Shown: in pieces, positions 6,776 through 60,255 of the stretch
How positions within the stretch are numbered: the stretch's first letter is position 1
Layout of the letters: each line of letters begins with the position of its first letter
NCBI GenBank assembly: GCA_008632985.1
Contig: QPGO01000023.1
Span: 124,001 to 188,000 of the forward strand
Direction: 5' to 3'
Source of the DNA: Psammoneis japonica
Lineage: Eukaryota
DNA length: 64,000 bases
Notes under the pieces: generated by a model
What the model was told of the DNA's origin: nothing
Seen by the model: the letters and a program-made list of their open reading frames with translations, nothing else
Databases searched by the model: none
Program-made: the position numbers and the translations under genes

Positions 6776-7783
6776 TCAGCATTCAGATTCCGTATGAGAC
6801 GTGATACGAAGTCCAAGCAACTTGTGTTTGGCAGCCGTATATTCCTTGTCAGACAACCTTTTGGCCTTGTGCTGACTCGCTAGATTAGCCAGTTGCGAAA
6901 CAATCGCCTCGTCGGGAGAGATCGACCGATAGTTTGACCTTGCCGTCGCCACTGCAATGTACTTGATGTTGGTGGACAGATACTCATTGATTTCCTTGAC
7001 ACGAGGCATGACTCGATCGACATACCAGTCACTGTACTTCATCTTAAAGGCGGACGCGTCGGTTGCGGATGGAGCTGGCTCGAGGAATAAATGAGGCTCG
7101 TCAATCTCACAAATACCGCCTGTTTCAAAGCGAAGAACCATGTTCTGTTTCCAATCCTCGCGACCAACGGAAATCTTGTTAGGAGGTATCCACTCGGGTT
7201 TGGTCCAGGGCTTGCTCTTGTCTTGTTTGAGAACCATGGCTTTAATGGCTGCTTCTAGAAATTTGCGTCTTGACAGCGTCATCAAACAAACGTTTTTTCC
7301 TTCACACGAAATGAGAAGTCGAGACGCAACGGCTGGATCAGCAACGACCTGATTGTTGATGGTAAGCAAGTAATCTCCTACATGCATGCTTGTTTTGCCA
7401 AAGGGACCACGACTATCAATGTGATCAATCCGCACCAAACTCTCGTTCAAACGAGAGAATTCCAACGAGTTAAGCAGCTCGCGCGGATGATTCTGAACAA
7501 ACGTCAGCTCGCCGCCCTTGGGAAACGGATGGTTGGAAGCCATGATGTCGACTGGTCCTTCCACTTGTTTGAGATAGGCCACTGCCTTGTCTGCTTCCGA
7601 AAAGTGCTGGCGGTTAATGGTCAAGATTTCGTATCCAACCTTGAGCGACGTCTTGATGAAGGGACTGTCTGGCGACACGTTGGAGATTACCACATCCCCG
7701 TTTTGCATCATGAGACTGAGACCCAAATGAGAGCTCTGTCGCTGCTTGACAACAGACGCGTGAATGATGGACGGGATAATCAT
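6776..7783 (-). CDS. Tandem PDZ-domain protein with short C-terminal SHOCT-like helix pair
   Basis: LGLSL..VVISNV.PDSP....LKVGYEILTIN; second repeat GPFGKTSMHVGDYLLTINN; C-terminal LANLASQHKAKRLSDKEYTAAKHKLL. Confidence 0.8.
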   Translation of the reverse strand: MIIPSIIHASVVKQRQSSHLGLSLMMQNGDVVISNVSPDSPFIKTSLKVGYEILTINRQHFSEADKAVAYLKQVEGPVDIMASNHPFPKGGELTFVQNHPRELLNSLEFSRLNESLVRIDHIDSRGPFGKTSMHVGDYLLTINNQVVADPAVASRLLISCEGKNVCLMTLSRRKFLEAAIKAMVLKQDKSKPWTKPEWIPPNKISVGREDWKQNMVLRFETGGICEIDEPHLFLEPAPSATDASAFKMKYSDWYVDRVMPRVKEINEYLSTNIKYIAVATARSNYRSISPDEAIVSQLANLASQHKAKRLSDKEYTAAKHKLLGLRITSHTESEC

Positions 7784-7939
7784 GGTGGCAATAATGTATG
7801 GATGGGTACTTCTTACTTCATTCGCGGCAACGCTGATGTGACGATGCCGTGTGGAGTGTGACGGCGGGGCACGAGCGACACGTACCGTACTACCGGGTAC
7901 CAGGTGCCGGGTGCTGTACCGCAGAAACTCATTCTCCTG

Positions 7940-10900
7940 TTTGCAGAGGTGTTTTCTGGCTCATTTCACATCTTTTATCTTTTTGACAAAGCTCAAAGAG
8001 GAGGTTGACCTGGCCTTCTTGCACAGCACTGGCTCTCCTAGGTTGCTCAATGTTGCACAGTGCAAAAAAGACACGCTGCCAACTTGGCTGATCTTTTGCA
8101 GCACATGCAGAAGATGCTTGCAAGAAGGGGTGTCATCTTGAGCTTCTCTGCTGGGGTCCAGACAGCCAGCACTGACCAAAGCTGCACTTGTTTGTTTGCA
8201 GCATCTTGTGCCCCTTTGTGACAAGTGCTGCATCTGAGGCCCAGAGACTCCAATGTGATGACACATCAGGACTGGCCAAATGTGGATGTTTTTCTCTTCT
8301 CCGTGCGCTGTTTTTCTTGGCACATCTTTGGGCACAGTGTGTGGCTCCAGCCATGGTTTGGCATTCGAAAAACTGTTCCCTGGGGATCTCTTGGACAGCA
8401 AAAATGCACTCACAGCTCTTTGTGGGGTGAGAACCCACTCTCCATCACGGCAGTGTGAGTGTGCTGGCAAGATGGCACTTGTGAGAATGTTGCTTGTGTC
8501 ATCTGTTGTGAGCTTCTTGGCTTGATTCAGTTTGGTCAGGTTTTGTGTTGCTTGGCTCATGTGTCAATGAGAAGCTGGAAGTTTTGGTCCTTTGTCCATG
8601 CAAAGAACACCTGGAAAATCATTTTGACTGACAAGACTGCTTGGCATGCAGTGGAAACACAGCACTCTTGTCCTGCCAGGCCATGAAAAAATGGGGCCAT
8701 CAGATCAATTGTTTGGCTCAGAAGATTGGCTCCTGCTCATTTTTTTGTGCAGTCTCTTGTTGTCACTGCACAACAATGATTTCTCTGACTGCATTTCTAT
8801 GAAGGGGTTGATGAAAAAAAACAGCTCTGTGAATTTACACAGGCAAATCACTGAGGTGAGCCAAGGGTGGTTCACACATGAGCTTGCTTGTTGGAGATCG
8901 GCAGAGGTGCTTTTTGATGTGTTCTGTGTGTGTGCCACCATGCACTCTGTTGCAGCCAAAAAAATGCTCAGTTTAAAAGCACTTTTATGTTCATTGTTCA
9001 AAGCAAGTGATTCCACAGTCAACCATGTTAATCTGTTGGCACACACACTCATCCGTTGAGCCCAAGCTTCCTTCTCCCAAACCACACCCAGCTCCAAACA
9101 CCCATGTCATTCACCCCTTCACTGCTCCCTCCCCTGAAAAAAGATGCAGGGGGAGGGAGAGCTGTGGCTCTGTGGATCAGCCTGATGATCCAAACTAAAG
9201 CCAAAAGAGGCAACAACAGTGTCGGTCAGGCAGATTGAAAAACTGACCTTCCTCAGCTGTGCCCCCAAGTGCCTGCCAAAAAAAAGTTCCTCGCAGCACT
9301 GTGCCCCCTCCTTGCAGAAGAATGGACAAGAGTGTGTGGCTTAAAAGAGCAAGGGCCTGTGCACCTGTTGCAGCCAAACTTCCTTGAAGTGCTTGATGAG
9401 AAAATGACCACATCCAAAGACTGCCAAAAAAGAAATGACTGATGACAATGCCCACACACGTGCCAGCTTTCCAGATGCAAGACAGACAAAAAACTGTGGA
9501 TTTTGCTGGAGGCATCATTGTTCCTCAAAGTCATGACACAATGGTCAAATCAGGGGCCAAGGGTGAGCTCACACAAGTGCAGCTCACTTGAGGGGGGGCT
9601 CTGAGATGTGCACACACACATGTGTGCCAGCCTGGCTTGTTGTTGGCTGTGAGGCATGGCAGGGTGTGGTTGGTGGTCCACACACAGAGTGTTGTCATGT
9701 TGCCAAAGCCTTGTTCAGTCAACAGCATGCTCTCCTGGTCATTCAAAATGTCCATGACATGTTTTTGGCACAGCTGCTCAGCACTCATGAGCCACTGACC
9801 ACTCCGCATCTTGAGGCTCCAAAGCTGCTGCACTCTGCCTTGGTTCTGAGAAAGCAGCATGGTTTTTGGCCACCCATTGACTCTCAAAAATGCCCCACGA
9901 CTTTGGCTTGCAGCACCCCATTGCTTGCAACACAAGGAGATCTGCTCATCCAGAAACACCACCTGTTCACAGAGGTTCTCTGGCTTGTTTTGTACATTTT
10001 TTTGACAAAGCTCAAAATGAAAGTTGATCTGGCATGCTTTCACAGCACTGGCTCTCCTGGGTCACTCAGTGTGCAACACACCAAAGCAAGACACATTCCT
10101 GACTCAACTGATTTTTTGCAGTTCATGCAGAAGAGACCTGCAAGGGGGCAGTTTGGGGCTTCTGGGGTTCACACAGTTGATGATGACATCCCAAGTTGCA
10201 CTTGGACATTTGCAGCATCTTGTCCCTTTGACATGAGTGCTGCATTTGAGGCCCTGGGGTTTCAATGTGATCACACAGCAGGATTGGCCAAATGTGCAGA
10301 TTTTTTGCTTCTCTGCTGCTCTTTTTCTTGGCACATCTTTTGTGCACAATGTGCACCACGGTTTCAGCCATGGTTTGGCACCATTTGAAGCTGCACCATG
10401 CTGCAGGGTCCAGGGGTCTCTTGGGCATCAAATGCAATTGTGGCTCTGGATGGGTTGAGAACCCACCACCCTCCAGCCCCCTTCCCAGCAGCACAAGTGC
10501 TGGCAAGATGACGTGCATGAGAATGTTGTGTCATCTGTTTTGTCAGCTTCTTTGTTCAATTTGACCTGGTCCAGTTTTGTGTCACTTGGCTCTCATTTGT
10601 CAATGAGAAGCCAGAAGTTGGAGCCCATTGTCCATCCAAAGAAAACCTGGAGCAGATTTGTTTTGACTGACAAGACTGGCCAGACATTGAGTCTCTCCCC
10701 TGCTTGGTGGTGCAGCGGCATTGCCACACTCTTGTCCCACCTGTGACCACATGCCACTCACTCATGATCAATGCTCTTGTCAAACTTTAAGCTCCAGTCA
10801 TCTGCATCGTCATTCACCCCCCCTTCATTGCTGGCACCTCCCAAAAGAGTCAGGAGGCAGTGAAAAAAAGAGACCTGCAACTTTGTGGATCACCCTGTTG

Positions 10901-11180
10901 GTCAAAACACAAGCTGAAAGAAGAAACAGCAGCATTGGTCAGGCAGATTGAAAAGCTGCCCTTCCTCACCTGAGCCTTCAAACACCTGCCAGTTTGGCAA
11001 ACCCCAAGTGGCAAAGCTCAGCAGCTCAGCTCTTTGCAACACCCTCCTCGCACAAACAACAACAAGGGCATGTGGCACACAAAAGAGCAGGGGTTGCACC
11101 TGCAACCAAACTTCTCATTGCAGTGCTTGATGAGAAAATGACCACAACTGGAGATTGCTGCCAAAAAGAAATGAGTCAGA
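7940..11180 (+). repeat. Diverged direct duplication: copy A ~7940-8690 plus ~9100-9450; copy B ~9965-10750 plus ~10800-11180
   Basis: Shared anchors: ttttgacaaagctcaaa (7981/10000), cacagcactggctctcct, gtgctggcaagatg, ttttgactgacaagactg, ggtcaggcagattgaaaa, gtgcttgatgagaaaatgaccaca. Confidence 0.85.
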
Positions 11181-11419
11181 AAGAGATTGCCTTGGGAAAA
11201 AGATGACTCAAAGATGAAGCTGGCTCAGAAGAAAAAAAGCAACATTTGGAAAATTGATTTAGCAGGGTGACTTGAAAGATGAAGACAACCTGGAAAAAAC
11301 AAAGTTTTGGATGAGAAGGCAAGTTCTTGGAAAAGTGTGCACAACAAAAGATGACAATGTTTTCACCAACATGATTTTCTTTTGAAGAAAGGACAGGACA
11401 ACCAAACAACAAGAAACTG

Positions 11420-11965
11420 TTTCATGCAAGCCAAAACCTTTGCTTTTTTGTGGCTGTGAGTGGGTGAGGAGCCCAGCAACAAGTTTCTGTGCATGCAGTG
11501 TTGGACAACAACATTCTCTCACCCTGTTTGCAGTGGTGTTGCTGGGGTGGGCCCAGGAATGGACCAACTGTGGTCTGTGTTGGAAAACAAGGAAGAGTGG
11601 CACACAGCAGGTTGCTCCATGGGTGTTGGATTTGGTGGATTTTGTTGGCATGGCAGAACTGCCACCTCCCCACATTATGGAGTTCTTCTCAACTGCCATT
11701 TTGTGGTGCAGCACCAGCACAAAGTTGCACCTGCTGTGTGCCTTTTTGATCACAAAGCTTTGCTTGGAGGCATGATGCTCTTCTCTTTCTTGTTGGGTCA
11801 TGTCTGTCCAAGGTGTTGTGTGGGTTTCTGGAGGAAAAAAATCCCCACAGTTGAAAAACATGTCAGGATGTTGAGTGCCATGGAGTGGTTGTTGGTGAAG
11901 AACAGCACACCAACCGTCATTGCTGAAACCACAAAAAGAAGCTTGGATTTAACCTCACTCTGACC
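11420..11965 (-). pseudogene. Decayed gene remnant with N-terminal hydrophobic anchor, product unknown
   Basis: SEVKSKLLFVVSAMTVGVLFFTNN, then frameshifted FFPPETHTTPWTDMTQQEREEHH; no Tyr. Confidence 0.3.
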
Positions 11966-12591
11966 GCTGAATGAGAGAAAAGTGTGTGGCAACAACTGGT
12001 TGACTCTTCTTAAAAAGAAAGAAGAGGTGCAAGATGTTGTCAACACTGTCTTTGCAGCCCGTGCGATGTTCGGCGCTCGTTTTTCATTGGGAGTCAAACA
12101 TCAGAATCACAGCCCATCGCGCGTGCGGGCTCTGCACCACATGTGTGGATATGTCGTTCATTCAGACGGTCCTGACTGAGAGTGGATCAAGCTTCACTGT
12201 AAGACGAGCGGCAATGTAGAATATCTCAAACTGCAACCACTATATCCTCGTCCGGTAACACCACATGGAATAAAACGACTGTGGTTTTCATGCTAGGTTA
12301 GTAGAGGGGCTTGCACCTGACCCTGACAACGGCGAGTCTTGCATTTTCGTTTGATTGTGGGCGTTGGGTAAAGGTAGTTCTATAACTCGAATGATCATTC
12401 AATGGCAAGCTGCGGAATGCTTTGTGGTCGCCGCAAGGAGAGCTCGACCGAACAGGAGCCCCTGACGACTTGCACTCTAGTATGAAGAGCAGCGAGATTA
12501 TGGTCACCGCGTAGGATCGTCTTTCCCTTCGTTCGCATCTGCTATGCTACGCCTATATGTTCCTATGTAGAAGCTGGCCACTGCGACTGGC

Positions 12592-13869: not shown

Positions 13870-14259
13870 TCTGACTGCAGGGGGGTGTCACTGCTAATCA
13901 AAGTCGTCCTGAACGACAGCCACTGTTCGATCGATGAAGCCTGTATGGTTGCATGCTGTTGAAGTGAACGATTCGATGTGATGAGAGATGAGATGAATCA
14001 AATGATGGATGGTGCGAACGCTGAATCCAGAAATCCAAAATGCAGTCGTGGTCGCGCGGGCGATTCGTGTTACCCGTCAGCGCGAAGTTGAAGTGCGCTC
14101 TCGAGCTTTTTGTCTTTCCAAAAAGCTCAAAATAGCTCGAGCCGCAGGATTTTCTTCTGTCATTGGACTTACGGCATGCATCATGGCATCATCACGATGT
14201 TGTCACAGCAGGGCTACTTCTTGTTCCATCATACTGTAATACGGTAAGGCCGCCAAACC

Positions 14260-15120
14260 ATGAAGACAGATCAAAGTGGCAACGATAAGATTCATGTTGA
14301 TGCCCACAAGGGTGAAGCGTTGTCCAGAAACAACTCGAGAAGGTCTCCAAGAAGCGCGTCAGAAACAGAAACGTTGCTTCTGACGGCTGACGACAAGAAC
14401 GAGTGTGATTCACAACTTGTTGAAACAAACAACAAGAACTCTGTTGCAAGAACAAGCGATTCATCTTCGAGCAATTGGAGCGGATTCTTTGTGCAACATT
14501 TGAATCGAAAGACCATGTTTCTTGCCGGCGTCGCGGTTGTTGTGGGCGTTGGTTTAACAGCAGCAGGTGCCGCCTGTGTGCTTGCATTGATTGCTCTCTT
14601 GACATCTCCCACATGGCTTCCTGTTGGGCTCATGACATGTCCCTTCTGGTCACCACTGGCATTGCTCACGTCTCCTCTGTGGGTGTCGGGGTTGGTCTTG
14701 TTGGCAATCGGATTTGCATGGTGCGTGGCTGGAGCGGCCTTTGTTGCGGCAGTTTTTATCTTTTTCGCGTGGCCGACCGAGTGGTTGCCCAAGGATTCGA
14801 GCAAAGCGGAGTGGTTCTTGATGAAACGGAGTTGCGTGACTCTCTTTCTCATCAAGCTTCAAGCCAAACTTGTTTTGCACTCAGCTGGTGTTGGACCCTT
14901 GGCGGATGCCACCTTTGCGATTGCCGATCGCATTGACCTTGTTGAGTTGCAGAAGGCCATGGCTGACTTTGATTTACAACAGTGGGCTGATCAAGTGAGA
15001 CAAATGGACATTGCGCAAATGCAAGCAGTGCTTGTTGCTGCCATTCGATCCGTGGTTGGTCTGCAATCTGATGAAAGTTTCGAATGTGAGGGGCACTGGG
15101 ATTGTTTCGTGAAAGTCTAA
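14260..15120 (+). CDS. Oleosin-like long hydrophobic hairpin protein; Tyr-free, TA-mutated copy (possibly a pseudogene)
   Basis: ~90-aa hydrophobic stretch with proline-knot-like TSPTWLP/TCPFWSP/LLTSPLW; no Tyr in 286 aa; CG retained while TA is nearly absent. Confidence 0.55.
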   Translation: MKTDQSGNDKIHVDAHKGEALSRNNSRRSPRSASETETLLLTADDKNECDSQLVETNNKNSVARTSDSSSSNWSGFFVQHLNRKTMFLAGVAVVVGVGLTAAGAACVLALIALLTSPTWLPVGLMTCPFWSPLALLTSPLWVSGLVLLAIGFAWCVAGAAFVAAVFIFFAWPTEWLPKDSSKAEWFLMKRSCVTLFLIKLQAKLVLHSAGVGPLADATFAIADRIDLVELQKAMADFDLQQWADQVRQMDIAQMQAVLVAAIRSVVGLQSDESFECEGHWDCFVKV

Positions 15121-15799
15121 TTTAGCACACCACCATGGGCAACAGAAAAAGCAAGGCTGTGTTTCATCACAATGTGCCGTCTTAACAACAACATGCGTGC
15201 TGTGTGCATTGAGCTCAACGAAGAAGCGAGCAGGCAGTCGTGTGGCAGAGAGGGCAAAGGACACTCTTGAAACCACCAGGTGGGTCTGCCCGTCAAGTTG
15301 CAGCAAACGTTCTCGGTTGCCAGAGAGAAGTCAGCCAGAGGACCAATCAAGCAACTGTCACTTGGTGTCAAAAAGTCAAGATGAGGAAGCTCTGCAACAC
15401 CTCAAAAAAGAACTCGACCGGAAAGCTTGTTTCCTGTGGGATTTGACAGAGAGAGGCAATTTGCCGATTTCAGCTGGGACCGTCTCAATGGATTCACCAG
15501 AATGCAACTGGAGATTGCGCAAGCCATCATGTTTGCCAACTGTGCCAGGCAGCCTGCAAGTGAGTTCAGCTGAAAATGATTTGGGCCAACAGGAATGACT
15601 GACTCCAGTGAAGTGGTGAGAGAACCTTCCAGATCATTCTTCTGACCAAAGAAAGGGAAGAGCATCAGATTGGCAGTGAGACAAAACTCTTCAAGATTCT
15701 CCAAGGAGAAAGTTTCAAAAGTGCTGCTTCTTTTTAATTCACGCTGCAAGCAGCAAAAGGTCCTGAGACAAACAATCCCCCCAAGCAGCATCTGCAGCT

Positions 15800-16385
15800 G
15801 TTGAAGCAACTTGGTCTTTCATGGACCACAACTCTTCACCCTTGGTGCCCAAAGCACTGCAGAGCTCCAGTCAGCAGCCACAATGCCCCACAAGCAGCAT
15901 GACTGGCCCTCTTTGTTTGAGCATCAACAGTTGTTGAAGCAGCATCAAACCCATCCTCAGCAAGAATGAAAGACCTTCAATGGAGTTGATTCCTTTGCTT
16001 TTCTCTGTCTTGTCTTCATGCAGCAAAATCTCCAACTCACATTGACTGGAGTCAACTCCAGAAAGAACCTCAATTTTTTGTTGTCGTGTGACTTCCAAGC
16101 TTTTGCTCAGTCCTTCATGGATGATTCTCCATCCTTGGTTCCCAGCACATGACCACCAGAGAGCTCCTGCTGGCAATCACTGAACAGCTCCCAAGAAGCA
16201 GCTTGGGTGCCACAGCTTGTTCTGGCACTGACGACAATTGAAGTTGCTCAGTCTTTCATGGACAACTCTCTGCCCTTGGTCTCCAATGTGCCACAGAGCT
16301 CTGGTCAGGCCAATGGTCACAAAGCAGTCTCCAGGCAGCTTGGTCAGCCTGGTTTGCTTGAGCATCAACAGGTTGAGACAGTGTC
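15800..16385. repeat. Three diverged internal repeats in a decayed gene
   Basis: Recurrent gtc(t/c)ttcatgga..cc(c/a)ttggt..agagctc unit at ~15812, ~16108 and ~16250; tgagcatcaacag recurs at ~15918 and ~16359. Confidence 0.55.
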
Positions 16386-16964
16386 AAGCCCGCTGCTCAC
16401 ATCATGGGTTGCAGCAGACACCCGCATTTCATCAGCGGCAAACAACCTTCCACAGAGTTGAGTGCTTTGCATCTCTGTCTTGTTTTCATTTGGCAAAGTG
16501 TCCAACCTGTGCTCTGGAGATGAAAAAAAGAGAAGCAGCAGGCACAACTTGGCCAAGGCTGCAGCAGCATTGCCAACCACCACAGGCACAAAACACAGCC
16601 ACTTTTCTCACATTGGCAGCAGTGCATCCCCTTGTGTGACATGTGCCAGCAGTCAGTGCTGTTGATGGCAGGACCTTGTGACTTGCTTCTGATGGCCACA
16701 GCAGGGTGCGGCAACACTTCTGCTCCCAAGATTGCTGTCTCAACCTTGCCAGCTGCTTTTTGGGAGAAAACACTGGCCCCAGCAGATGCCTGCTGCACCA
16801 ACCCTTGCCAAAAGAGGGGCCAAAAGCTTTGTGAAGCCCATGTTGCCAGGGCCAAAGCAGAGCTTTTCTTGACAGCAAGAGCTGTTGGAAATGCGTGGCT
16901 TTCTCCCGCTGGACAGCGGCACATCAGGAAAAGGGGAAGACAACCCTGAGAAACCCAAACACAG

Positions 16965-17620
16965 ATGTGAGGTCATGTTTTGTTGGTGTGTTGCTCAATG
17001 ACAAGCCTCCCTCCACAATGTGTCACAAATTGGTGCATTGGCGGAGCCAAAGATGGAACTCACAACCCAAGTTGAGCTGCAGTTTGGTGCAGAGAACAGC
17101 GCAAAACTGACAGCCTGTTGGGCTGTCTGCTCCCCTCCATTGGATTGCATGGCAAGCCTTCAACAAGAGAGATGGAAGAGTTGCCATCACATTCTGTCTT
17201 GGCGCATGGTGTAGATTGATTGGGAGAGTCAATTGGGGGAAAAGGGAGCCAACACATCCAAGAGGCAATTGGAGCAGATTTTCAAATCTTGGTGGCAGAA
17301 AACAATGTCTTTTGACTTCCCCCAGCACATTTGCCTTTGTCTTTGGTGCCTTTGCCAGTGTCAAGAGAACTGGCAAGGGTTTGGACAGTGAGTGTGACAT
17401 TGGAAAGCTTGCTCAATCTTTGTTGAAAAGTTCACACCAGAAGCACAAAAGGGTTGCTCAAGTGAAGCCACCAAGAATTTTGACATTTTCTTGCATGCGA
17501 TGGGTCTCAACCCAAAGGACACACCAAGACAGCAGCAGTCATGTCACCACAAAAGATTGTGTGTGTGTTGAAAAAACCCTTCAATCCATGGAAGATGGCA
17601 GCCTCAAGGTTCGAGTTCAT
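16965..17620 (+). pseudogene. ABC1/UbiB atypical kinase fragment, copy 1 (internally deleted, frameshifted)
   Basis: FPSTFAFVFGAFASVKRTGKGLDSECDIGKLAQ...TLQSMEDGSLKVRV matches the ABC1K C-terminal consensus (FRFP.TF.F..RAF....GIGKGLD). Confidence 0.75.
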
Positions 17621-17702
17621 GAGTTGACCTGTTTTTGTGGGTGTTGGTGTGGTTTTTGCACCAGGGAAAGGGGCAAGACAATTCCGAAAAACTGGGGCAA
17701 AA

Positions 17703-18395
17703 TCTGAGGTCACATTTTGTTGTTGTTAGTGTGTGTCACTCAATGGCAAGCCCCCACAATGTGTCACAAAAATGGGCATCAGCAGAGCCAAAGATGTGGA
17801 GCTCACAACCCAAGCTGAGCTGCAGCTTGGCATGGAGAACAGCACAAAACTGACAGCTTGTTGAGCTGCCTGTTCCTCCATTGGATTGCATGGCAAGCCT
17901 TCAACAAGAGATGGAAGAGTTGCCATCACATTCCACAATGACACGTGGTTTGGATCAAGCAGTGGTGGAAAACAGGCAAGATGCTTTGTGCGTGCTTTCA
18001 GGGACAATCAATTGGAAAAAAAGGGAGCAAGCATCAATGAGACATTTGGGATGGATTTGCAAACCTTGATGGAAAACAATGTTTTTCGATTTCCCATCAC
18101 ATTTGCCTTTGTCTTTTGTGCTTTGGCCAGTGTCGAGGGAATTGGCAAGGGCTTGGGCAGTGAGTGTGACCTTGAAAAGCTTGCTCAACCCTTTGTTGAA
18201 AAGTTCACAGAAGCACAAAAGAGGTGCTCAAGTGAAGCCGCCAAGAATTTTGATGTGTTCTTGTGAGCGACGGGTCACAATCCAAAGGATGTCGAGACGG
18301 CAGTCATGCCGCTACGAATCCATAGATGACGGCAGCCTCAAGGTTCGAGTTCGATCCTTGGAAAACGAAAAAGCCCCGGAGCGAATGGCTCTTTT
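17703..18395 (+). pseudogene. ABC1/UbiB atypical kinase fragment, copy 2 (tandem duplicate)
   Basis: ENNVFRFPITFAFVFCALASVEGIGKGLGSECDLEKLAQPFVEKFTE...GSLKVRVRSLENEKAPERMAL; clear nucleotide alignment with copy 1. Confidence 0.8.
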
Positions 18396-19900: not shown

Positions 19901-20906
19901 AGCATCAAGTCAGCGGGGAGGTCGGAGAAGTACAGATCTTGAAGCTGTCGCTGGGTTCGCTCAAATTTGCAATTGATGCCATCCGCTCCGATTGATTGTT
20001 CTTTTGTTTCGGTCACAAGTTCTTCGTCCCCACCTTATTGTTCCCTGATGGTTGGCTGGAGGTATTGTGTGATTGCGGATTGGTTGGAGCGGTCAAATCC
20101 TTCCATTTGACACCGGGTGAGAATCGATCATGAACTTATTGTTTCATACTTCGTGGCGCTCGCCGTGACTCATCTATTATGCAACAAAGTTCATACTCAG
20201 CCATGTCACAGACCTGTATCAACAAACAATGTGACTGGAGAAGAACTTCTTGGTCGAACTGAGGGTAATCAATTCTCTTCCAGCCCACCGCAGCCTTAGC
20301 AAAAAATATTGAACCCAAGGAGTGTTCATGGGTCTTCACTTGGTGTGCGAGTGCGATGAAGTACTTGGTAATTACTTCAATCGTTATTTCTGTTAGCGTA
20401 CAAGCAGAAAATGAGTGTAGTATAGTTGTTACGTGATAAATTGTACGGTGTGTGATTTCTGATCAAAGAATTCTCACCTCTAAAGTTCGTTCGAAAGGCT
20501 TAGAACTTGGTGCAGAATCTGGAGAAGCGAGAGAAATCAACGAAGGACCGAGTTCTAGAATCAAATAGTGCATCTACCGTCGGAGTTGAGGCGTGGCGAC
20601 ACAACAAACTCACTTTTCGTCAGGCACAGGATCGTGAGCATGACTTAGTAATGGCGTTGCGGCGAAGTTGTATCAGTTTTGAGAGTTGATGTTCTTGCGA
20701 GAAGCTGCCGGTGTTGTTGGTGTTGGCTCCTGAATCTGATGATGACGCGAAAAGGCACCGCCATTTCCACCCATATCTCGAAACGTAAAGATTCCTCCTC
20801 GTCGTGAGATGGTGTGTATGAACTATGAACAGTGCTGCGAACGAAATGGGAGAAGATGCGCTGCGACAATCTCAAAATCTGCCATGCGTCATTGCGGTGT
20901 GTTTAT

Positions 20907-21255: not shown

Positions 21256-21344
21256 TTATGCTCGGGCGGGCGGAAGCAGGAAATCTTCTTGGAGCGTGGA
21301 GCTCGTTCAATGACGTCATGGGGTTCGCCCAAGCTAGCTACAGT

Positions 21345-23200
21345 GCACAAAATGTGACAGTGAAAACACCGTTGGTTTCCCGCCACATTTTCAAAAATTT
21401 TGAAACGGCAGACCGGGACACATGAAATCCGAATCACTTTGCTCATTGTTGACGAAGCACACAAATCGCCATTCGACCGTTTGAAACACATCGTTGTCTT
21501 TATTGCCATGGTTGATTCCACAACTCTGCCACAGGTGAGTCGATCGTCTCGTTCTCGTTGAGAACCAGATCTGCTGGAGTCAAGTCATTGAATGTCGTCT
21601 GCACACGATTGCCATGTAGACCTGAAGGCTTGGGTCCTTGACGGTTTTCCTCTGTGTGTTTGATTGCGTGCATCTTTGGAAGTCTGTTCGAGGCGAAATG
21701 ACGATTGCCTGTCAAAGCAGTCCGTGGTTCCGACGGAGATGCACCAAGATTGCCAGCAAACTCGCTTCTTGCGTGTGCGCTGAATGCTTGTGAACATCCA
21801 ATGTGGCAGCAACCCGGTGCCAACCAACGCACTTTTTAGTGCAACGGTTGTTCAAGCAGGAACCACATGAGGGCCAGCCTCTGCTTTCTTTTTGAACGCA
21901 CGCTGAATGCCTGCAGACGTCATGGACCAAGATGGTGTGCTTGACAACCCCGAAGGGCAGCCTTTTTCGTGAAGGTTGCAAGGTGGTTCAGACCGCTTGA
22001 GTTGCTCATTGAGCATCTCACATCTGATCCCCCACAGGTTTGATGCTCCTGTGGGTCACCGGCCCGTTGCATCAGCCACATTCTCCACGCCCCACAGCAC
22101 CTGAAGATCTGTTTTGTTGCATTTGCAATTGTGACCGTCTTGCTGAGTCATGCTTCATGACTCACACTCTTTTTTCAGATTTGATTTCCATTTGGACAGA
22201 CGACATGAATGGAGACATGCAAGAAGGAGGAGCTGCACATTGACAGGTCGTCAACAGCTGGTTCATGTTGGCAATGGTGTTGCTCTTGTTGTCGCTTTAG
22301 TCCCCGAAAGAGCAAGGCACGATGCTCCGTGTCATGGATGCCATTCAAGCCATCTGAATCTAAGTGCTGCGCTCATGTTCTCTCGGACGTGATCTTGGTC
22401 AGTCGCGCAAGCTAGTTCACAAGGCATCCAACCACAATTGGGATGCAAGGCTTTGACGTTTGACAAGGATCGATGCACCATCGTCCTCGTTGCGACCGCA
22501 CGCCGGCGGAAGTCTTCAAAAAGCTTGTTGTTGCGGTCTTCCCAAGTCCCCGCCCCAAGAACACAATCACAGTCTTCCAAGTGGTTCATCATGCAGCAAG
22601 AACTCTTGTCACTGCTCAAGCTCTGTCGAGTCAAAAGAGCCAAAAGGACGCAGCACTGTGGGCATTTCAACGGTCGCCCTTGTTCCGTTGGAATGGCACC
22701 CGTGACCTCCGACAGGCATCTGCATCACAAGACATTCAGGATCATTCAGCAAATGCAAAGCTGTGTGAGCACTCCAAGATTCCGCAGTCCACTTCACTGA
22801 GAGAGTGTTGAGATCAAGAGCCCAATCTGCATTCAAGATCAATCAAGCCCGACAAGGCCAACTGTCTCCAGAAAGAAGAAAGCTGCTGCAGCTTTGATGA
22901 ACCATTGCAATGCTGACCAAGATGTGGCAACAGCTGTGCATTGCAAATTCCAGCCCCATCCAGCACCGCACTGCTCGAAAAGCGATGCAATCTGAAATGC
23001 CATCTCAAGGATCCACTGCTCAGTTGGTCGCAGCAACGACGGCATTCCAAGCTTCGACTGCCTGTGTTGCTCGCAAAGCGTTGGTGCAAGAATGACATTT
23101 GCTCTTGAAGGTCCCCGTTGCTCCAACGTCAGATCACTTGTGCCAGCGGGACATTGATTGAGCAATCTCACTCAAAGCTTGATTGACGAATGCGATCGTT
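21345..23200. other. TA-depleted hypermutated domain 3 (CG partly retained)
   Basis: Very few TA, many CG still present; ORF peptides nearly Tyr-free. Confidence 0.8.
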
Positions 23201-23560
23201 GGAAGCTTGTACCTCTCCAAAAGCTCCGAGAAGCACCCTTCACTCAAATCACGCAAATTTCTTGAGAGCATAAACTGAAGCATCTGCAGCATAGCTTCAT
23301 CGATTCAACAAGACAGACGGCAAGTGAAGAGGCCATTTTGAAGGTTGGATGCTTGCAGTGCGTCTCAAGTACTCTCCTCTCCTGTAAGGCATCCAATTGC
23401 TTCGTGTGGACCCAAGATGCGGCCCCGACTGACGTTCTGGCTTCAAGCGACCGGAAATGGAAGAAAAACGACGGCCAAGCATTCTTGCAGTGTCGGACTG
23501 CGACTCGCCCTCTCTGCAGAAGGACGACTACCATTCATACGTGTGTAGCAAAGAAACATT
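21508..23560 (+). pseudogene. Decayed intron-containing gene of unknown product
   Basis: ATG at 21508, 9-codon exon, GTGAGT..TAG intron 21535-21619, then a protein-like frame interrupted by TGA codons (plausibly former CGA). Confidence 0.35.
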
Positions 23561-23604: not shown

Positions 23605-23928
23605 TGCCATGCTTACCTCGATGACGCACTCGCTTCGTTTTGCCTTCATTGCAGCCACATTAATTATTTTAAAACAATGCCTGAGATTGAAAGTGCATCG
23701 GGTATTAATGCGGCTTTGAGTTGCCTTTCTCCAATAGTTGATCACCGTCGCCTCCGTGACTTTTGCCATGCTTACCTCGATGATCGCACTCGCTTCTTTT
23801 TGCCTTCATTGCAGCCACATTATCTTTTTAAAACAATGCCTGAGATTGAAAGTGCATCGGGGTATTAACACGGCTTTGAGTTGCCTTTCTCCAATAGTTG
23901 ATCACCGTCGCCTCCGTGATTTTTGCCA
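23605..23928 (+). repeat. Near-identical ~159-bp tandem duplication
   Basis: tgccatgcttacctcgatga...gatcaccgtcgcctccgtga repeated at 23605 and 23764. Confidence 0.9.
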
Positions 23929-53046: not shown

Positions 53047-53239
53047 GATTTATATCTCTAATGTGTGGCAGAAGTGCAGCAGCTACACCGCACGCAAGCG
53101 CTCTGTGGCAGACGCGACACGCGCGATTGTTCGCAGTGGCTGCACACACACCGTGTACTCTCTCTACTGCCGGCAGCTAGAGCTGGACACTCTCTACACT
53201 TTACTAGAGTAGAGTCTACAATGGAACACACTCGTGCTG

Positions 53240-54240
53240 AATCTGCGGAACAGCACACGAAACAGCATGTTTGTTTGTTGTTTGTGATGCAATCATGTGG
53301 AACTTGCACCTCTCCATTTGTCCATGCCTCAAAGCAAAACTTGAAAGATCCGAGAGCACATGCGATGATGATGCGCTTGCTCTCAATGGTGCGGCATTGA
53401 GCGACAAATCTGTTGTTCCACAAGAGGCTGGCAACATTGACCAAGTTGAGCGCAATGTGCAGCACAGTCAACACAGCACAGAAATGAAAGGGGCTCACTC
53501 TGACTCTTTAGAGCTTTTGGAGCAGCACAAGCAGGTTGTCTTTTTCCATGTGTTCCTTGTCAAGACAGGGTGGGAAAAGCCATCAGAAATCCTTGCTTTG
53601 GTTCTTGAGGACTTTGAAGCCTTTTTGTGGAATGTCCCAGCCATGGGATTCATCTGTGGCACTGCCAAAGATGTGAGAGAGTGCATGCAGGCCAAGCCAA
53701 CAAGCACTTCCAGAGGAGCACAAAGTGAGGCATCATGAAAACACTGCCAGAGTGCTGGTCGTCAAAAAAAAATCACCAGCTTGTGCTGCAGCTCACTCCC
53801 AATGCAAGTTTGGCACATGAAATGGAAGTGGTGCATGTTGTGCATCTGCAGCTGCTGGCATTTTCTTTGTGGTGGTGACTGGGGTGGCTGGCAGCCTGGA
53901 TGACACAATGCATGTGTTGCCATCTGTGCACATCAAGACAATGACGGTGGTGAGTGGACATGGCCAATTGAGCCAGCAGCGCTTGGCAGCATCCTTCAGC
54001 AAAGATGGCAGGGTGTTGGCTCTTGGAGCCAAATGCAGTGGCAGCAGTGTTGGGGGGGCATCTCCAGCCAGCAGCTGGCCAAAGAATCTTGTGTGAAACT
54101 GGTGTGGTGCTGAAAGAGTCTGTCAATCAGCGCATTTGGGGGATTTGGCCAGGATTTGGTGAATGCTGGACAGACTCAATGCAGGAGAATTTCCCTGCCA
54201 ATTTAGAGGAAGCAACACCTGCTCAAATCTGCAAGTGAAA
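53240..54240 (-). pseudogene. Decayed gene, membrane-protein-like C-terminus, unknown product
   Basis: Protein-like frames QILAKSPK...RFFGQLLAGDAPP...RCWLNWPCP and AVLTVLHIALNLVNVASLLW...IIIACALGSFKFCF. Confidence 0.3.
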
Positions 54241-54943
54241 CAACGCTTGTTTTTTATCTATGACGGGAGATGGAGTTGCAGTCAAAAATCTGTTCTGTCA
54301 TTGTCACCTGGACAGCAATTCTGCACCCAGATGCGCTTGATTGCACAAGTTAAGAGCAACTCTGGGAAGCAGCCCCCCTTTTTTTTTTGCCAAATGCCCT
54401 TTTTTTTTTGCAAGTTGTTGGCACAGTTCACAGTGGGACAAACAGAAGCAAATGGCTCAGTTTGGTGGCAGCACGCAGTGATGTGCCATGCAACAAAAGC
54501 CAACTTGTGCAGTCATGTTTTGTGCAACAGACAATGTGCCACAAAACACAGTTGAATCAGTGATGATGCCATGCAATGTGTGCCATGCAGCCAATGTGCC
54601 AATGCAACAAACATGCCAAGTTGTGTGGCTGCATCAGGCAGCACGCTGCAAAACACAACTGAGTCTGGTGATGCCATGTCACAAGTGCCAAATGGCATGG
54701 TTGCAACACACATGAAACTGAAGCTCACTGGGAAAATGACCCTTGTTGCACCTGTGCTGGCAGCAGATGCATGGATTGCTGCTTTTCAAGTGCTCATCAA
54801 TGCAGGTCAACCCTTGGCCCTGATCCTTTCAACACACCAGCAGTGCACCCACACTCCACACACCACCACCAAACTGTCTTGTCTGACTCACAGGAAGAGT
54901 GTCAAAATCAACACCTCAACCTTTTTTTTAATTTTCTCCTTTG

Positions 54944-55339: not shown

Positions 55340-56439
55340 TTTGGCAAAAAAGACAGCTGTTCAGAGAGAGCATTGTGTGGTGCTGTCTGTCATCACCAAA
55401 GCAGGATGACGATGCTGTGGTCTTTCACTGCTTGAATTGATCATGCAACAAAACACAGCTTGGAATTGTGCAAGTGCTCAAACAGCACTGAGTTGAAGAG
55501 GTTGTTCTCATTTCCTGATGCACAATGCCCCTGCCTATGTGTTGGTGTTGTTCCAGTCCTTCTCAACTCATTTTGCACTCCATCTGTGTGCTTCATCACC
55601 CAAGATGACCATCAGTGTGCATGTCTTTGACAAGAAGGATCTTTTCCAGGAGAATGAAAATTGTGCTCAACCTTTCTTTCAACACTTGCTGGTTGTCAGA
55701 TTCCTGCTCCAGAGTTTTCTGCCCTCTGGATGATTTTTGCAACTCAAGTGTCAAGAAAAGAGCAGAGACAAACCTGGCTTCCAAGTTTGATTTCTCTGAT
55801 TTTGAACCAGCACAGAGGGTGGCATCATCAAAGGCAATTGAAACTTTGTCCAGGCAATGTGTCGCATGTTCAATGGCCCATGCATGGCAGTCATCTCAAA
55901 ACAAGCAACAGACAAATGGCAAACAGTTGTTGGCCTGAGGATGGGCACACGCGGGGGCAAGATCTAGATGCTTGCAGGCCATGCAATTCCCACACTTGAC
56001 AGCATCAATTTTGCCTGCCTTGGAGCACCCCCAAATGCTTGTTTGCTTGTTGAACCCTTGCCAGGGCTGCTGTGCTGCTGCAAGAGCTTCTGCATGACCC
56101 CCCTTGAAACTTCAGGTGTCACATGTCCACCTGTGCCCTGTTGCTGGGTTGAAATTGCTGCCAATTTTTGCCAAAATTGTGTGACTTGTGGCAGACAAGT
56201 GCCAACAATTGGTGTTTGACTGGCTGCAGGCATGTCTGTTGTCTGTGCATTCCATCATGTCATGCAAGTGAACAATGTTTGGGCTGTCCTGCTGGAGTTC
56301 TGCTTTGGTGAGCTCCTGCATTTGATGCTGTTGTTGGAAGTTTTTTTTTCAAAGAACAAAGGGCCACAAACATGACCAAAATGTCAATGGTCTTTGTGAG
56401 GTTTGCATTGATGTGCACAATTTCCACCTTTTTGTGTTG

Positions 56440-57465
56440 TTCTCACATCACATGTCTTTGACTCTTGTTTTGACAGGACAGATTTGAGCTTGCTGGTTTT
56501 TTTCTGAGGACACCAAGGCACTGCCAGCTCACATCAGTGCATGTCATGCACAAGGCTGGATTGCTTGTCTTGGTCTCAGTGGCTTCTGATGTTGTGCTAA
56601 AAATGAGAAGCAAAAATGCCCCACAACAACCCTGTGGTTTCACAGCACAGACCAGGCACCACCAGTCAAGATGGGCTGCCATCTGTCAAACCACAGACAC
56701 CCATGCCATTGATGAAAAAATCTGAAGATGCAAAAGAACAATGGCCCCTGCTGATCTTCTTGACTGCAAGCATCATGCCAACTGCAGAATGTGTGGGTGT
56801 GTCATGCAGAGTTTTGAGTGTCACTTTTCCATTTGTTGTGCTGGCCAGAAAGATCTGCAACACATGGATGTGAGAAGCTGTGAGACAAGGTTTGCCATGA
56901 TGTTGTGTTGACCACCATGCACAATTTCTCTAAGTTGGGAGAGAGGTGCACAGCTTGCAGACAAGTGTGAGCATGTGTGCTTTGGGAGGCAGCGGAGGCA
57001 ACCAGATCAAGAGCCAATCTCTTGACAACATCTTCCATCTCTTTGGTCCCAAGAAATCTGGCAGAACTTGAACCCAGTGGGAGAGTCGTCAAACATCAAT
57101 TCAAGCAAAATGTTGAGTCCTTGAAAACAGACAGGTGTTCTGGCGAGATTGCACCATTTGATGTGGTTGTGGAAGAGGAGTGATTGCTCATCAGTTAAAC
57201 GCCAATCGCAGGTCCTGTCCATGTGGTTGTCCCATTCCCTGTTTGTGGCCACCGGCACGAAGCTTTGAATGCAACATTTTGATGGCTGCAAGACCTCCAT
57301 GAGATTGTCGATCAGGTGAATGTTGCTATGATGTGAAGAAAAGTCCCCATCCCAATGACATTCTTTTAGCTTGAAACCTCGTCTTGTGTCATCCTCTTGT
57401 CGTCTGAGAGCTGCAAGCAAAATTTCATCTAAATTGCACCCATTGACACTTAAAAATCCCGCCAA
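56440..57465 (-). pseudogene. Decayed protein gene, possibly diatom LRR-like family
   Basis: MAGFLSVNG.NLDEILLAALRRQ..., LQIFLAST....TLKTL, C-terminal ..GVLRKKP; several frameshifts. Confidence 0.3.
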
Positions 57466-57689
57466 CGAAGCTTCCTAAAGTCGTGTTTTGAAAAGCAAGG
57501 TTCGCTGCCGACAGTTCGTGATGCTCTTTTCTTGCATTCCATGGCGCTTCTGCTTGGCACACAGGTCATCATTGGAAGAACATGATTCGAAAGGAATCTG
57601 AGCTGGATTGCTGGTTCTTCTTCCTTTTCGTCGACAAAGTCCTGAAGCTCAAGTTCGTTCACAACATCCACCCCACAAGTGTTCCCTGC

Positions 57690-58760
57690 AAACTGCTCTC
57701 CATGTGCCCCTGCCTCTTTGCTGTCATCCTTCTTGTCCGACTTGTTGTTGTGCCTGCATGAGCGTGGATGTCGAGATGTTCCTTCTCGTGAGTGACTCGA
57801 ATCTGGAGTGAAATCATCACCGTCGCCTTGGCCATCTTTGGACGGGTTTCTCTTGTCATCAAAAGGTTGTTTCCGCAAAACATGCACCATGCAGAACAAC
57901 CAAGAAAGTCCATCCGAAACAAAGTGACATCAACAGAGTCGGAAATGTCAAACATGTGCTCCAAATGGATCTTTTCTTTGCTGCCGGTGCGGATGACACA
58001 TTGGGACAATCTTCCACGTTGTGAGCCAAACCAGTGGAAATGCCATCTCTTGTTGAGATTGGTCATCACAGTCAGTGCACTTTTGTCAGGATTCAGGGAT
58101 GAAGCAGCAAGATGCTGGAGGATGACCTGGTGTTCATGGGCTCCAGCATTGGTGTCTTTCTGATGCTCCACACCTGCCCACATGTTCTGGCAAATTGCGG
58201 CATTGTTGACTTCTTTGCCCTCTGCAAGAACTGTGTCAACATTGCCCGATGCCTTGTGCTTCCCACCGCCCAGTTTTGGCACACACAGCAGGTCTTTACA
58301 TTCATTGCATTCGGCAAAAGCGCATTCCTGTGGTCATTGCATTTTGTCTTCAAGACAATTCATGTGCCCGTCGCGATTCTCCTGGCTGTCTTCTTTGCTT
58401 TTGAACCAAGTAAAAAAGCCCACATCAGGCAGGTTGGCAGGCCACTTGCTCCATTCGGCACCGGTCAGTTTGGGGCCCAAGTCATCACTCACTTCGTGAT
58501 GGCATCAGACTTTGCCTCTGAAAATGCCAAAGTCTCTGCCTCACGCTGCTGCTTTCAGACGCATTCCACAACCTCCAGTGCACCAGCATTGAGCTGTTGC
58601 TGCTGAAGTTGTTGTGCACCAATGCAACAGCGTGTCTCCCCGATGGTCAAAATTCCACCATCACAGAAGATGAGAGTGCCGAATCTCTTGACAAAAGGCT
58701 CTTTCTTGTTGGCTTTGATGGTGCTGCATGGAATGAACAGGGTGGATGCGAGCACATGTT
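57690..58760 (-). pseudogene. Crinkler (CRN)-like protein pseudogene
   Basis: GNVDTVLAE...WAGVEHQK...QVILQHLAAS.LNP....LTVMTNLNKRWHFHWF resembles the restriction-endonuclease-like CRN C-terminal domain found in stramenopiles (recalled, not searched). Confidence 0.55.
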
Positions 58761-58979
58761 GGAGTGAATTGCTGTTGTTTCTTCATCATCCCACTTCACC
58801 AATGCAAGGCCATTGGCAGCCAGCACCTCCACTGCAGGCAATTCCGCCTCCTCCTCCAACTGAGCTGCTGAAGTGGCGTCCATTTTCTTGTTTGTTGTCG
58901 TTCATGGCAGTTGTTTGTGTTTTTGCTCGCATCTCGCATGCTCTGCATCCATGTCATCTTCTTCTGTGTCACAATGAAG

Positions 58980-60010
58980 AAATGCATCAACACAATCCTG
59001 AATTCCCCATCACATCAAAATCATCAGCATTGTTGAAAGATGCCGGTGTTCAATCAACACACCATGTCTGGGGTGTGACCTCATTTCTCCAAGAGCGCCG
59101 TGACCGCACCTGCGTCCAATTTGTTGCTTCCGACTGTTGCGCACAACCCCAACATGTTTTGAACTTGGCGGCACAAGAGTGCATTGCCCACAATGCAAAC
59201 ATTGACCAGACATGCATTGGACAGCTTGTGAGCAAACATTCCTGCATCACATGGCTGACTTGACATTTGCACATCTTGGATGGCAACAATCGGCGACAGT
59301 CGTTGGCATTTGGAACTTCCAAAAGTGGTGAAATCATTCATCCTGATCAAATGGGATGATGCTGTTTCATTGATAAAATGTTCAATGGATCATTTGCATT
59401 GATTCTCCATGATCTGTCCCATCAAATGGCACAGCGTCATCTCTCTCTCCAGTTGTCAAATTGAGGATTGGCAAACACAGGTGCATTGGGCAGCACTGAA
59501 GCGTGCACTCCAATCAATCGTTTCTGGCCAATTGAGTCTTGCCCATAAAACTTGTTCTTCATGAAATGTGGGGCCTTGGCAACGGATGGAATGCGAACAG
59601 TGTCATTTTGTTGTCCCAAATGCCACGGATCATTCCCTCGAGAATCTCTTCTTCCAACATGTTGTGACAAATGACGGTTCAAGCCATGTGGCGGAGATTG
59701 CATGATTCCTGCTCTCATGTTGTGGCTTTCAAGGATGAATGTCGACATGACATGTGTTGCTCAAGGCATGAGCTCCCCAATCCGTTCTCGACGACACTTG
59801 GATGTTTTCACAATTGTCAGGCCCAACCAGCTGGCAGACCGCTTTTAGAATCTGTCGCTCAAAACAGAAAACAGTCCCTCCAATCGGTGCCATCCTCTAA
59901 AATGCAGTCTTCTTGGTTTTGCTGACATGAGAATCCCAGAAACGGAGCACCATTGTGCTGAACCGGAAAGGCATGTCGACAAAATCCATCCAATCGGGTC
60001 ACTGCCATGC
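58980..60010 (-). pseudogene. Decayed gene of unknown product
   Basis: MAVTRLDGFCRHAFPV... followed by frameshifted protein-like segments with TGA interruptions. Confidence 0.3.
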
Positions 60011-60084
60011 GTGCACACCAGAAAACGCGAAAAAATGAGGCTGCAAACAAATTCGCGTTTTGAGAACAAAAAGCAAAAATCTTG

Positions 60085-60255
60085 GAGGTCTAAATTTCAA
60101 AATGGTTTTCTCAAAAAAGCATTAGACCTCTAATCGTTTTTTATCTGTACCTCAGACCTCGAGGTCTAATGGTTTCTTCGAAAAAGCATTAGACCTCTAA
60201 TGGTTTTTTATCTGTACCTCAGACCTCGAGGTCTAATGGCTTCTTCGAGACCTCG
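60085..60255. repeat. 67-bp tandem array (~2.3 copies) built from AGACCTC/GAGGTCT palindromic motifs
   Basis: Units start at 60101, 60168 and 60235; each full unit contains agacctcgaggtct and attagacctctaat. Confidence 0.9.

Follow-up and report, generated by a model that had tools for sequence, protein, structure and literature searches.

We describe segments almost devoid of the dinucleotides TA and CG in a 64,000-nucleotide stretch of the genome of the diatom Psammoneis japonica (assembly GCA_008632985.1, contig QPGO01000023.1, positions 124,001 to 188,000 of the forward strand; hereafter the window, numbered from its first letter). One of these segments, which we call islands, holds two diverged copies (A and B) of a duplicated block, and one copy carries TG opposite CA in the other at far more sites than expected by chance. 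The islands are quite probably products of mutation, through transitions that turn TpA and CpG into TG or CA: context, direction of change and confinement to discrete domains all point this way. The context and direction of the changes, the mass balance between lost and gained dinucleotides, the sharp borders, the lack of strand coordination and a loss of TA that extends beyond that of CG can all be seen in the window, and the sequences hit range from tandem repeats and one member of a high-copy repeat family to a pseudogene and an intact gene.

Reciprocal TG/CA differences between two copies of a block

The layout of the island that holds copies A and B is as follows.

7925..12010, island 1: stretch almost without TA and CG, holding copies A and B; sharp borders
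7936..8644, + strand, copy A, first part: pairs with 9962-10683 (75% identity in the four-letter code, 84% in purine/pyrimidine code)
8645..9138, copy A segment without a recognisable counterpart in B: alignment gaps; 5 TA and 2 CG in 494 bases
9139..9438, + strand, copy A, second part: pairs with 10852-11174 (69% identity)
9439..9961, spacer between copies A and B: not duplicated; 0 TA, 3 CG
9962..10683, + strand, copy B, first part: pairs with 7936-8644
10852..11174, + strand, copy B, second part: pairs with 9139-9438
11175..12010, tail of island 1: not duplicated; 3 TA, 2 CG

By blastn the duplication is direct and has two parts, 7977-8639 against 9996-10678 (71.6% identity over 708 columns) and 9157-9438 against 10870-11174 (69.8% identity over 311 columns). 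Diverged repeats were recovered with purine/pyrimidine coding, which is blind to transitions; in this coding the block limits are 7936-8644/9962-10683 and 9139-9438/10852-11174. At the place of the A segment 8645-9138, copy B has the sequence 10684-10851.

The first-pass annotation of this DNA had claimed that the two copies differ reciprocally, and this is borne out. Both pairs of sites quoted there are in place (ctccTAggtTGctc at 8035-8048 against ctccTGggtCActc at 10054-10067, and ctTGtgagaatg at 8478-8489 against tgCAtgagaatg at 10514-10525), and so is a TA surviving in copy A, at 8039, which faces TG at 10058. For counting we used a global MAFFT alignment, from which 995 columns were kept (30-column stretches with at least 60% identity); over these columns the copies are 73% identical, with 164 transitions and 101 transversions. 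CA opposite TG is the most frequent dinucleotide difference, found in 29 of 969 dinucleotide columns, far beyond the ∼3.3 expected if T/C and G/A transitions are assumed to be independent (Poisson P 5e-18). The excess is present in the first part of the block (22 columns versus 2.2 expected) and in the second (nine versus 1.3), and the whole alignment, low-identity parts included, has 34 such columns. Where both copies have TG or CA, they disagree in 29 out of 163 columns, compared with 22 out of 448 for the six other double-transition pairs (Fisher P 3e-6). No column has TA opposite CG. A residual TA or CG is found in one copy in 20 columns, and 15 of these have TG or CA on the other side. 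The transition/transversion ratio of 1.6 drops to ∼0.93 once the ∼70 transitions at TA/CG sites are removed (arithmetic on counts); it is 0.87 for the background pair. The block is best explained as an old tandem duplication (unit ∼2 kb) that shows ∼20% ordinary divergence and is non-coding or long dead.

Islands without TA and CG

Island 1 has 14 TA where 168 are expected and 19 CG where 224 are expected (Poisson P 2e-53 and 2e-70, respectively). Its odds are 0.05 for TA and 0.08 for CG (background: 0.59-0.64 and 0.92-1.0), TG and CA are at ∼1.8 times expectation, and G+C is unchanged. On the left, dense TA ends at 7917 and dense CG at 7920; on the right, the density is back from 12011/12060. 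The island occupies the gap between two minus-strand genes, 6776-7783 and 12592-13869. The remaining islands of the window are listed here.

14250..18310, island 2: TA lost throughout; CG lost only from ∼15520 to 18260
21260..23520, island 3: TA lost (13 versus 93 expected); CG kept (109 versus 124 expected)
53220..54925, island 4: 5 TA versus 70 expected; 18 CG versus 93 expected
55340..60090, islands 5-6: TA lost throughout; CG lost in 55340-56990, about half lost beyond

The island composition is thus found in seven segments (islands 1-6), which together make up 16.9 kb or 26% of the window. Six of the segments have no detectable similarity to island 1 and yet have the same composition, and all seven have TA odds of 0.02-0.10, TG/CA odds of 1.5-2.0 and sharp borders; CG odds are 0.05-0.18 in four of them. 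Their G+C content (0.47-0.51) is the same as that of the background. Because all of 7925-12010 and six further segments share the depletion, the A/B pair is not special.

Loss of TA without loss of CG is seen in 14250-15520, in 21260-23520 and largely in 56990-60090; there is no stretch in which only CG is lost. Among 255 scanning windows of 500 bases, 36 are low in both dinucleotides, 24 in TA only and 194 in neither, and the sole one low in CG only is borderline and lies inside island 1. CG loss in the window is therefore always nested within TA loss.

In all seven segments the lost TA+CG is matched by gained TG+CA, as conversion by transitions predicts. The changes in TA+CG and in TG+CA are -0.088/+0.077, -0.046/+0.044, -0.086/+0.070 and -0.042/+0.043 for segments 1-4, and -0.082/+0.099, -0.091/+0.096 and -0.062/+0.062 for segments 5-7. 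The order of TG and CA along the islands is random: a runs test gave z of 0.07 in island 1 and of -1.37, 0.13, -0.15 and -2.07 in the other islands tested, with background stretches ranging from 0.26 to -2.37. Such interspersion is expected for independent hits on either DNA strand, and the runs test found no strand-coordinated mutation clusters in the islands. The frequencies of AT and GC also shift slightly in the islands, AT downwards and GC upwards by 0.01-0.03, which we propose to put down to a side effect of the overlapping contexts ATA, TAT, GTA and TAC.

The genes flanking the islands are long, intron-poor and of eukaryotic type (Kelch, PDZ, NFACT, bestrophin-like). For the DAO-family protein of the window, the named best matches are all diatoms (52-60% identity).

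Direction of change from outgroup comparisons

Two sequences within the islands have homologues from which the direction of change can be read.

59084..60008, - strand, TruA-type pseudouridine synthase pseudogene (Pfam PF01416, E 1.3e-5), in island 6
14260..15120, + strand, intact, nearly TA-free gene of a conserved family with repeated SPxWLP motifs; 286 codons; opens island 2

The TruA-type pseudogene was aligned by tblastn with ten homologues, in one frame at 60008-59877 and in another at 59860-59084; it has a frame shift near 59870 and in-frame TGA codons. Half or more of the aligned homologues have Tyr at nine columns, and at these the pseudogene has Cys (five), His (two), Gly (one) and Tyr (one), while Phe is retained at nine out of 11 columns. 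Of the changed Arg columns, eight out of 14 now read Gln, Trp, His, Cys or stop, and Val has become Ala at four out of 20 columns. Restricting the comparison to strictly conserved columns gives Tyr to Cys in three out of three, with seven out of nine Arg changes being CGN to TGN or CAN. A search of PDB sequences with the read-through of the pseudogene had no matches at E ≤ 1.

The intact gene has 4 TA (TA odds 0.07) and no Tyr. It has 27 representative relatives (best E 6.7e-63), and a Tyr that is invariant in 15 out of 15 aligned relatives is His (CAC, at 14878) in the window; a column with Ile in 11 out of 15 relatives is ATG. CAA is found at 15064, about where its three closest relatives end (within two residues), and an 18-codon extension then leads to TGA, so that a stop codon may have been lost here. 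Five metagenome relatives have TA odds of 0.43-0.64, compared with 0.07 in the window. The product is membrane-like, with FFAWPxEWLP and AGVGPLADA motifs. In public run X1, which possibly comes from the same sample as the assembly, the stretch 13242-16411 is covered at about twice the baseline depth, and because of this doubling a second copy of the gene may exist.

Judged from these sequences, mutation in this genome has indeed run from TA to TG/CA as well as from CG to TG/CA. The proposal of the first-pass annotation that the TG/CA pairs go back to palindromic TA or CG mutated on either strand is thus supported by way of other islands, through Tyr to Cys/His and Arg to Gln, Trp, Cys, His or stop. 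Nor do all sites trace to CG in sequence natively free of TA, as Tyr codons (TAY) have become Cys or His codons in the outgroup comparisons.

The same comparisons bear on two further explanations. The first is ordinary CpG decay of methylated repeats whose sequence had few TA to begin with. Diatoms are known to methylate transposons at CpG (PMC9998398), and CG to TG/CA is clearly present in the window, but 24 of the 255 scanning windows have lost only TA, Tyr has become Cys or His at seven out of nine columns of the TruA-type pseudogene and at the invariant column of the gene 14260-15120, the relatives of that gene have normal TA, and differences between the window and run X1 include TA against TG/CA. 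As a sole cause CpG decay is thus very improbable, and for islands 2 and 6 it is refuted by the outgroup evidence. The second is selection, by which TA and CG would be purged from the islands for the harm that they do there, for example by attracting nucleases or transposons or by affecting RNA stability, much as UpA and CpG are counter-selected in some cytoplasmic RNAs and viruses (PMC3829696). The changes, however, ruin function: conserved Tyr and Arg are replaced, and the TruA-type pseudogene has in-frame stops and a frame shift. Copies A and B, moreover, are under no coding constraint (see below), and the exact balance with TG+CA fits transitions rather than a free choice of substitutes. 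Selection is thus already disfavoured, and we give it hardly any weight.

Repeats inside and outside the islands

Repeats and inserted elements elsewhere in the window provide comparisons for copies A and B.

15786-16043 and 16223-16513, + strand, diverged tandem repeat in island 2: 14 CA/TG columns versus 1.8 expected
16920-17553 and 17657-18318, + strand, diverged tandem repeat in island 2: 82% identity; 12 CA/TG columns versus 1.5 expected
26362-27686 and 28216-29533, inverted duplicate in normal sequence, used as a control: 5 CA/TG columns versus 4.7 expected
23605-23928, tandem repeat outside island 3: 160 bases, two copies, 94-96% identical; normal composition
54944-55339, element resembling a miniature inverted-repeat transposable element (MITE-like): 396 bases; 24-base terminal inverted repeats; TTTG on either side
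20916-21227, MITE-like element unrelated to the previous one: ∼34-base inverted repeats; normal TA/CG; adjoins island 3 on the left

Inside the islands, discordance between CA and TG is 7- to 10-fold over expectation in all four aligned repeat blocks (three repeat pairs), whereas it is at expectation in the one diverged duplicate outside. The members of that inverted pair are diverged paralogous open reading frames (ORFs) with 63% DNA identity, no Pfam family and normal TA/CG. One X1 contig joins 17254 to 18046 and omits 791 bases, approximately one tandem repeat unit of island 2, which suggests variation in the copy number of this repeat.

The stretch 20850-22117 belongs to a high-copy repeat family: its word depth in X1 is 1570-2569, compared with ∼55-70 elsewhere. 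No protein domain was found in this repeat. Its right part is depleted of TA in the window, and the left part of island 3 belongs to it. In 21685-21914, four out of four listed differences have TA or CG in the X1 copies and TG or CA in the window; because other copies carry TA/CG there, island 3 is a mutated copy of the repeat. The adjoining MITE-like element 20916-21227 is an insertion polymorphism, as one X1 contig joins 20906 to 21263 without it. The other MITE-like element, 54944-55339, is very rich in TA and CG and lies amid scrubbed sequence, which it divides into islands 4 and 5; either it arrived after the hypermutation or it is resistant to it.

If copies A and B shared a TA or CG and each resolved it independently, the two would be discordant about half of the time, which leads to reciprocal columns. 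With ∼78 derived TG/CA sites per copy, one half of them discordant and a factor of 0.65 for sites that survive other mutations, ∼25 discordant columns are predicted and 29 are observed, a number that fits most of the TA/CG loss postdating the duplication, as the first-pass annotation had concluded. A similar number follows if the sequence was already free of TA and CG when it was duplicated, and new TA or CG arising by transitions were resolved again, half of them to the other form: ∼216 TG/CA sites with a transition divergence of ∼0.107 give ∼23 columns. Residual TA/CG sites, together with X1 differences at such sites, suggest a recent or ongoing process, which speaks for this second sequence of events. 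It predicts a discordant share of ∼11%, though, and the observed share is 18% (29/163), close to the figure for independent resolution of ∼36% derived sites; the gap is not decisive. We regard such repeated resolution as less likely than not, although two copies give near-equal predictions for it and for mutation after the duplication; both rest on the same chemistry.

Whether duplication itself triggers the mutation is another matter. The first-pass annotation had called the differences consistent with a repeat-induced process. In a process of this kind duplication marks the DNA and both copies are mutated, perhaps by the very chemistry that we propose. Tandem duplicates do lie within islands 1 and 2, yet the unduplicated parts of island 1 (9 TA and 9 CG in ∼2.0 kb) are depleted to the same degree as the duplicated parts (5 TA and 10 CG in ∼2.05 kb). 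Island 1 as a whole has a word depth of 51-73 in X1, the same as the flanking genes, and because of this it is taken to be single copy at a likeness of at least 90%. Islands without similarity to island 1 hold the intact conserved-family gene and the pseudogene, which also gives the trigger no support. Island 3 overlaps the high-copy repeat, but its border at ∼21260 falls within the high-depth stretch. The stretch with the gene 14260-15120 is at about twice the baseline depth, and the TruA-type pseudogene is presumably a spare gene copy; against this, the duplicates at 23605-23928 (96% identical), 46761-47018 and 26362-29533 (the inverted pair) are untouched by TA/CG loss, although these three are short or diverged and hence weak evidence, and both MITE-like elements retain TA and CG. 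Comparative evidence also goes both ways: diatom DNMT4 groups with the fungal enzyme RID (PMC9998398), a lead rather than evidence, and the hypermutable viral region of the chlorarachniophyte Bigelowiella natans is single copy (bioRxiv 10.64898/2026.01.13.699255). A repeat-induced trigger is not demonstrated by these data, and we think it unlikely.

Content of island 1 and points that weigh against a mutational origin

No coding constraint shows in the evolution of copies A and B. The three codon phases have 49/218, 52/217 and 60/219 mismatches, with no phase favoured, and only six out of 30 gap lengths are multiples of 3, which gives no triplet signal. Long open frames are to be expected in island 1, as TAA and TAG cannot occur there; the longest frames of A and B translate to Cys/His-rich sequence, without similarity beyond the DNA identity. 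The minus-strand gene that had been suspected here was not recovered: there is neither a codon phase nor a triplet pattern in the gaps, and searches for Pfam families and for homologues of the minus frame 7964-8743 gave none (details below). We also tried a purine/pyrimidine codon-bias scan for dead frames, which missed known genes (the DAO gene and the TruA-type pseudogene) and was rejected; because of this failure its weak lean to one minus frame, 7925-8765, is not evidence.

Neither a set of 49 island ORFs nor the six read-through frames each of 57000-60101 and island 1 yielded a viral or transposon domain, and Pfam gave no relevant families for the 49 ORFs except PF01416. The targets identified in the islands are the TruA-type pseudogene, the conserved-family gene and the copy of the high-copy repeat. 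The window has no tRNAs.

Run X1 offers a second view of the same sequence. Its contigs are 99.4-99.9% identical to the window, and those over island 1 have 4 differences in 937 bases, 8 in 1420, 2 in 1093 and 1 in 1077. Among the 30 differences listed within islands 1-2, 17 are between TA/CG and TG/CA, in either direction. At 10811-10812 there is a CA to TG double difference between the window and X1, and three of the 33 residual TA/CG sites of island 1 are among the listed differences.

The identity with X1 speaks against an artefact, in which modified bases would have been miscalled in sequencing or polishing and true CG or TA written as TG or CA, though run and assembly may not be independent data. 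Where a modified site is symmetric, reads of its two strands could indeed lead randomly to TG or CA; the depletion, however, is near-total, it is accompanied by 20% ordinary divergence, indels, frame shifts and stop codons, and its sharp borders match gene-sized units. An artefact of this kind is highly implausible.

Several points weigh against a mutational origin of the islands, or against parts of our account of it. The A/B columns come from two copies with no outgroup and are unpolarised, each discordant column being compatible with an ancestral TA as well as CG, and the ∼23 columns predicted by repeated resolution are near the 29 observed. The X1 differences listed are 40 out of 305, chosen by support, so that counts made on them are indicative only; random transitions in such TG/CA-rich sequence would be expected to place ∼44% of differences in the class between TA/CG and TG/CA, and for both reasons the spectrum is suggestive only. 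Two TA/CG-rich MITE-like insertions in or beside islands are unmutated, which means that the process is slow, or inactive there now, or fails to extend into newly inserted DNA. As for island 1 itself, Pfam gave no families for its six read-through frames, the minus frame 7964-8743 had no homologue at E ≤ 0.01, and Rfam had no families over the 64-kb window, so that the island cannot be called foreign, transposon-derived or gene-derived. The coupling of TA and CG loss is without precedent in the main text of the B. natans preprint. Finally, the enzymes and the trigger that we name below are tentative, less likely right than wrong as named.

A possible mechanism

On the reading that we favour, TpA is converted to TpG or CpA by an A:T to G:C transition of A on either strand, and CpG to TpG or CpA by a G:C to A:T transition of C on either strand, each near completion. 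Since both targets are palindromic, sites resolve at random to TG or CA. In the TA step an enzyme might deaminate adenine in DNA at 5'-TpA-3', as has been suggested for B. natans, and the CG step might be a deamination of 5-methylcytosine in methylated, silenced chromatin; a single silencing mark, and not sequence homology in itself, may bring in both.

A broader and doubtful extension is that the islands are the work of a diatom genome defence which erases TpA and CpG from marked DNA through DNA adenine and cytosine/5-methylcytosine deaminating activities, shared across stramenopile, alveolate and rhizarian lineages. The CpG activity would perhaps be an RID-like DNMT4, and recruitment would be to duplicated, foreign or silenced segments with sharp borders. 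If true, and taken together with B. natans, such a defence would amount to an old form of immunity by editing. It would correspond in function to fungal repeat-induced point mutation (RIP) but act the other way on TpA.

Some practical points do not depend on the mechanism. Domains of this kind can be recognised in any genome by a simple check on the sequence, namely TA and CG odds combined with the TG+CA mass balance, and purine/pyrimidine-coded alignment recovers repeats missed by ordinary searches. For annotation, long TA-free 'ORFs' in islands should be treated with caution, as they arise when two of the three stop codons disappear.

Comparison with known hypermutation systems

Fungal RIP changes C to T mostly at CpA, creates TpA and lowers G+C. 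It is restricted to duplicated sequence, where it strikes all copies, takes place before meiosis and needs a RID-type methyltransferase. It resembles the process in the window in making context-specific transitions in non-essential or duplicated DNA, and in leaving diverged copies and skewed dinucleotides. In the window, however, TpA is destroyed and G+C is unchanged: TA is nearly absent from the islands at a G+C of 0.47-0.51, where RIP would raise TpA and lower G+C. Duplicates are found in islands 1-3, yet unduplicated parts are equally depleted (within this 64-kb window). In many diatoms the genome encodes a DNMT4 that clusters with fungal RID and has no assigned function (PMC9998398); by this analogy RID-like DNMT4 could be an enzyme link to RIP, again as a lead and not as evidence.

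The fungal case is one of several to be compared. CpG decay by deamination of 5-methylcytosine affects methylated repeats of vertebrates and plants, and CpG hypermutation is found in basidiomycetes. The likeness lies in CG to TG/CA changes with a matching TG/CA excess, confined to silenced DNA, and the window has CG odds of 0.05-0.18, the corresponding Arg changes, and CG against TG/CA among the differences from X1. CpG decay, however, explains only half of the loss in the window.

ADAR-type A-to-I hyperediting changes A to G with a preference for 5' U/T and can be fixed through retrocopies, a likeness in both base change and context. Hyperediting fixed as a retrocopy was rejected for the islands: they have no strand-coordinated runs of the kind that editing of a single transcript would leave, TG and CA alternate randomly, and AA is not depleted.

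In the literature searched, there is no report of TpA to TpG/CpA hypermutation or of TA-free islands in diatoms, and programmed A:T to G:C mutation of chromosomal DNA is described only in one 2026 preprint on B. natans. There, Mettrop et al. report TpA hypermutation of integrated giant-virus and virophage DNA (bioRxiv 10.64898/2026.01.13.699255). According to the preprint, two integrated viral regions acquired 231 mutations in mutation-accumulation lines, every one on TpA and, with a single exception, A to G or T to C; the rate in the hypermutated regions of these lines was ∼1000-fold above that in the remaining genome, and the genome has 124 clusters that are poor in TpA and rich in CpA+TpG (bioRxiv 10.64898/2026.01.13.699255).

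TpA to TpG/CpA transitions are restricted to discrete regions in both cases. In the window, A:T to G:C change at TpA appears from the mass balance, from Tyr to Cys/His, from Val to Ala and from differences to X1. Both leave a long-term footprint poor in TpA and rich in CpA+TpG, and most genes in the B. natans clusters are described as unannotated; the TA-poor genes of B. natans are reported to be enriched for reverse-transcriptase and DDE domains, and a repeat copy is affected in the window. There are also differences. The host is a rhizarian in one case and a diatom (stramenopile) in the other. TA odds are 0.02-0.10 in the window, compared with 0.45 for the B. natans viral region and a cluster threshold of 0.43. 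Near-total CpG loss is coupled to TA loss in the window, and the term 'CpG' does not occur in the main text of the preprint. No viral gene was found in the islands of the window, where host-type genes, a pseudogene and tandem duplicates are affected. The B. natans rates were measured in lines, whereas the footprint described here is known from sequence alone. The process in the window thus has its likeness in the recently described TpA hypermutation, and what is new is the lineage, the completeness, the nesting of CpG loss and the targets; this suggests that such a process is common across one of the main groups of marine primary producers, where it would shape gene survival after duplication or transfer.

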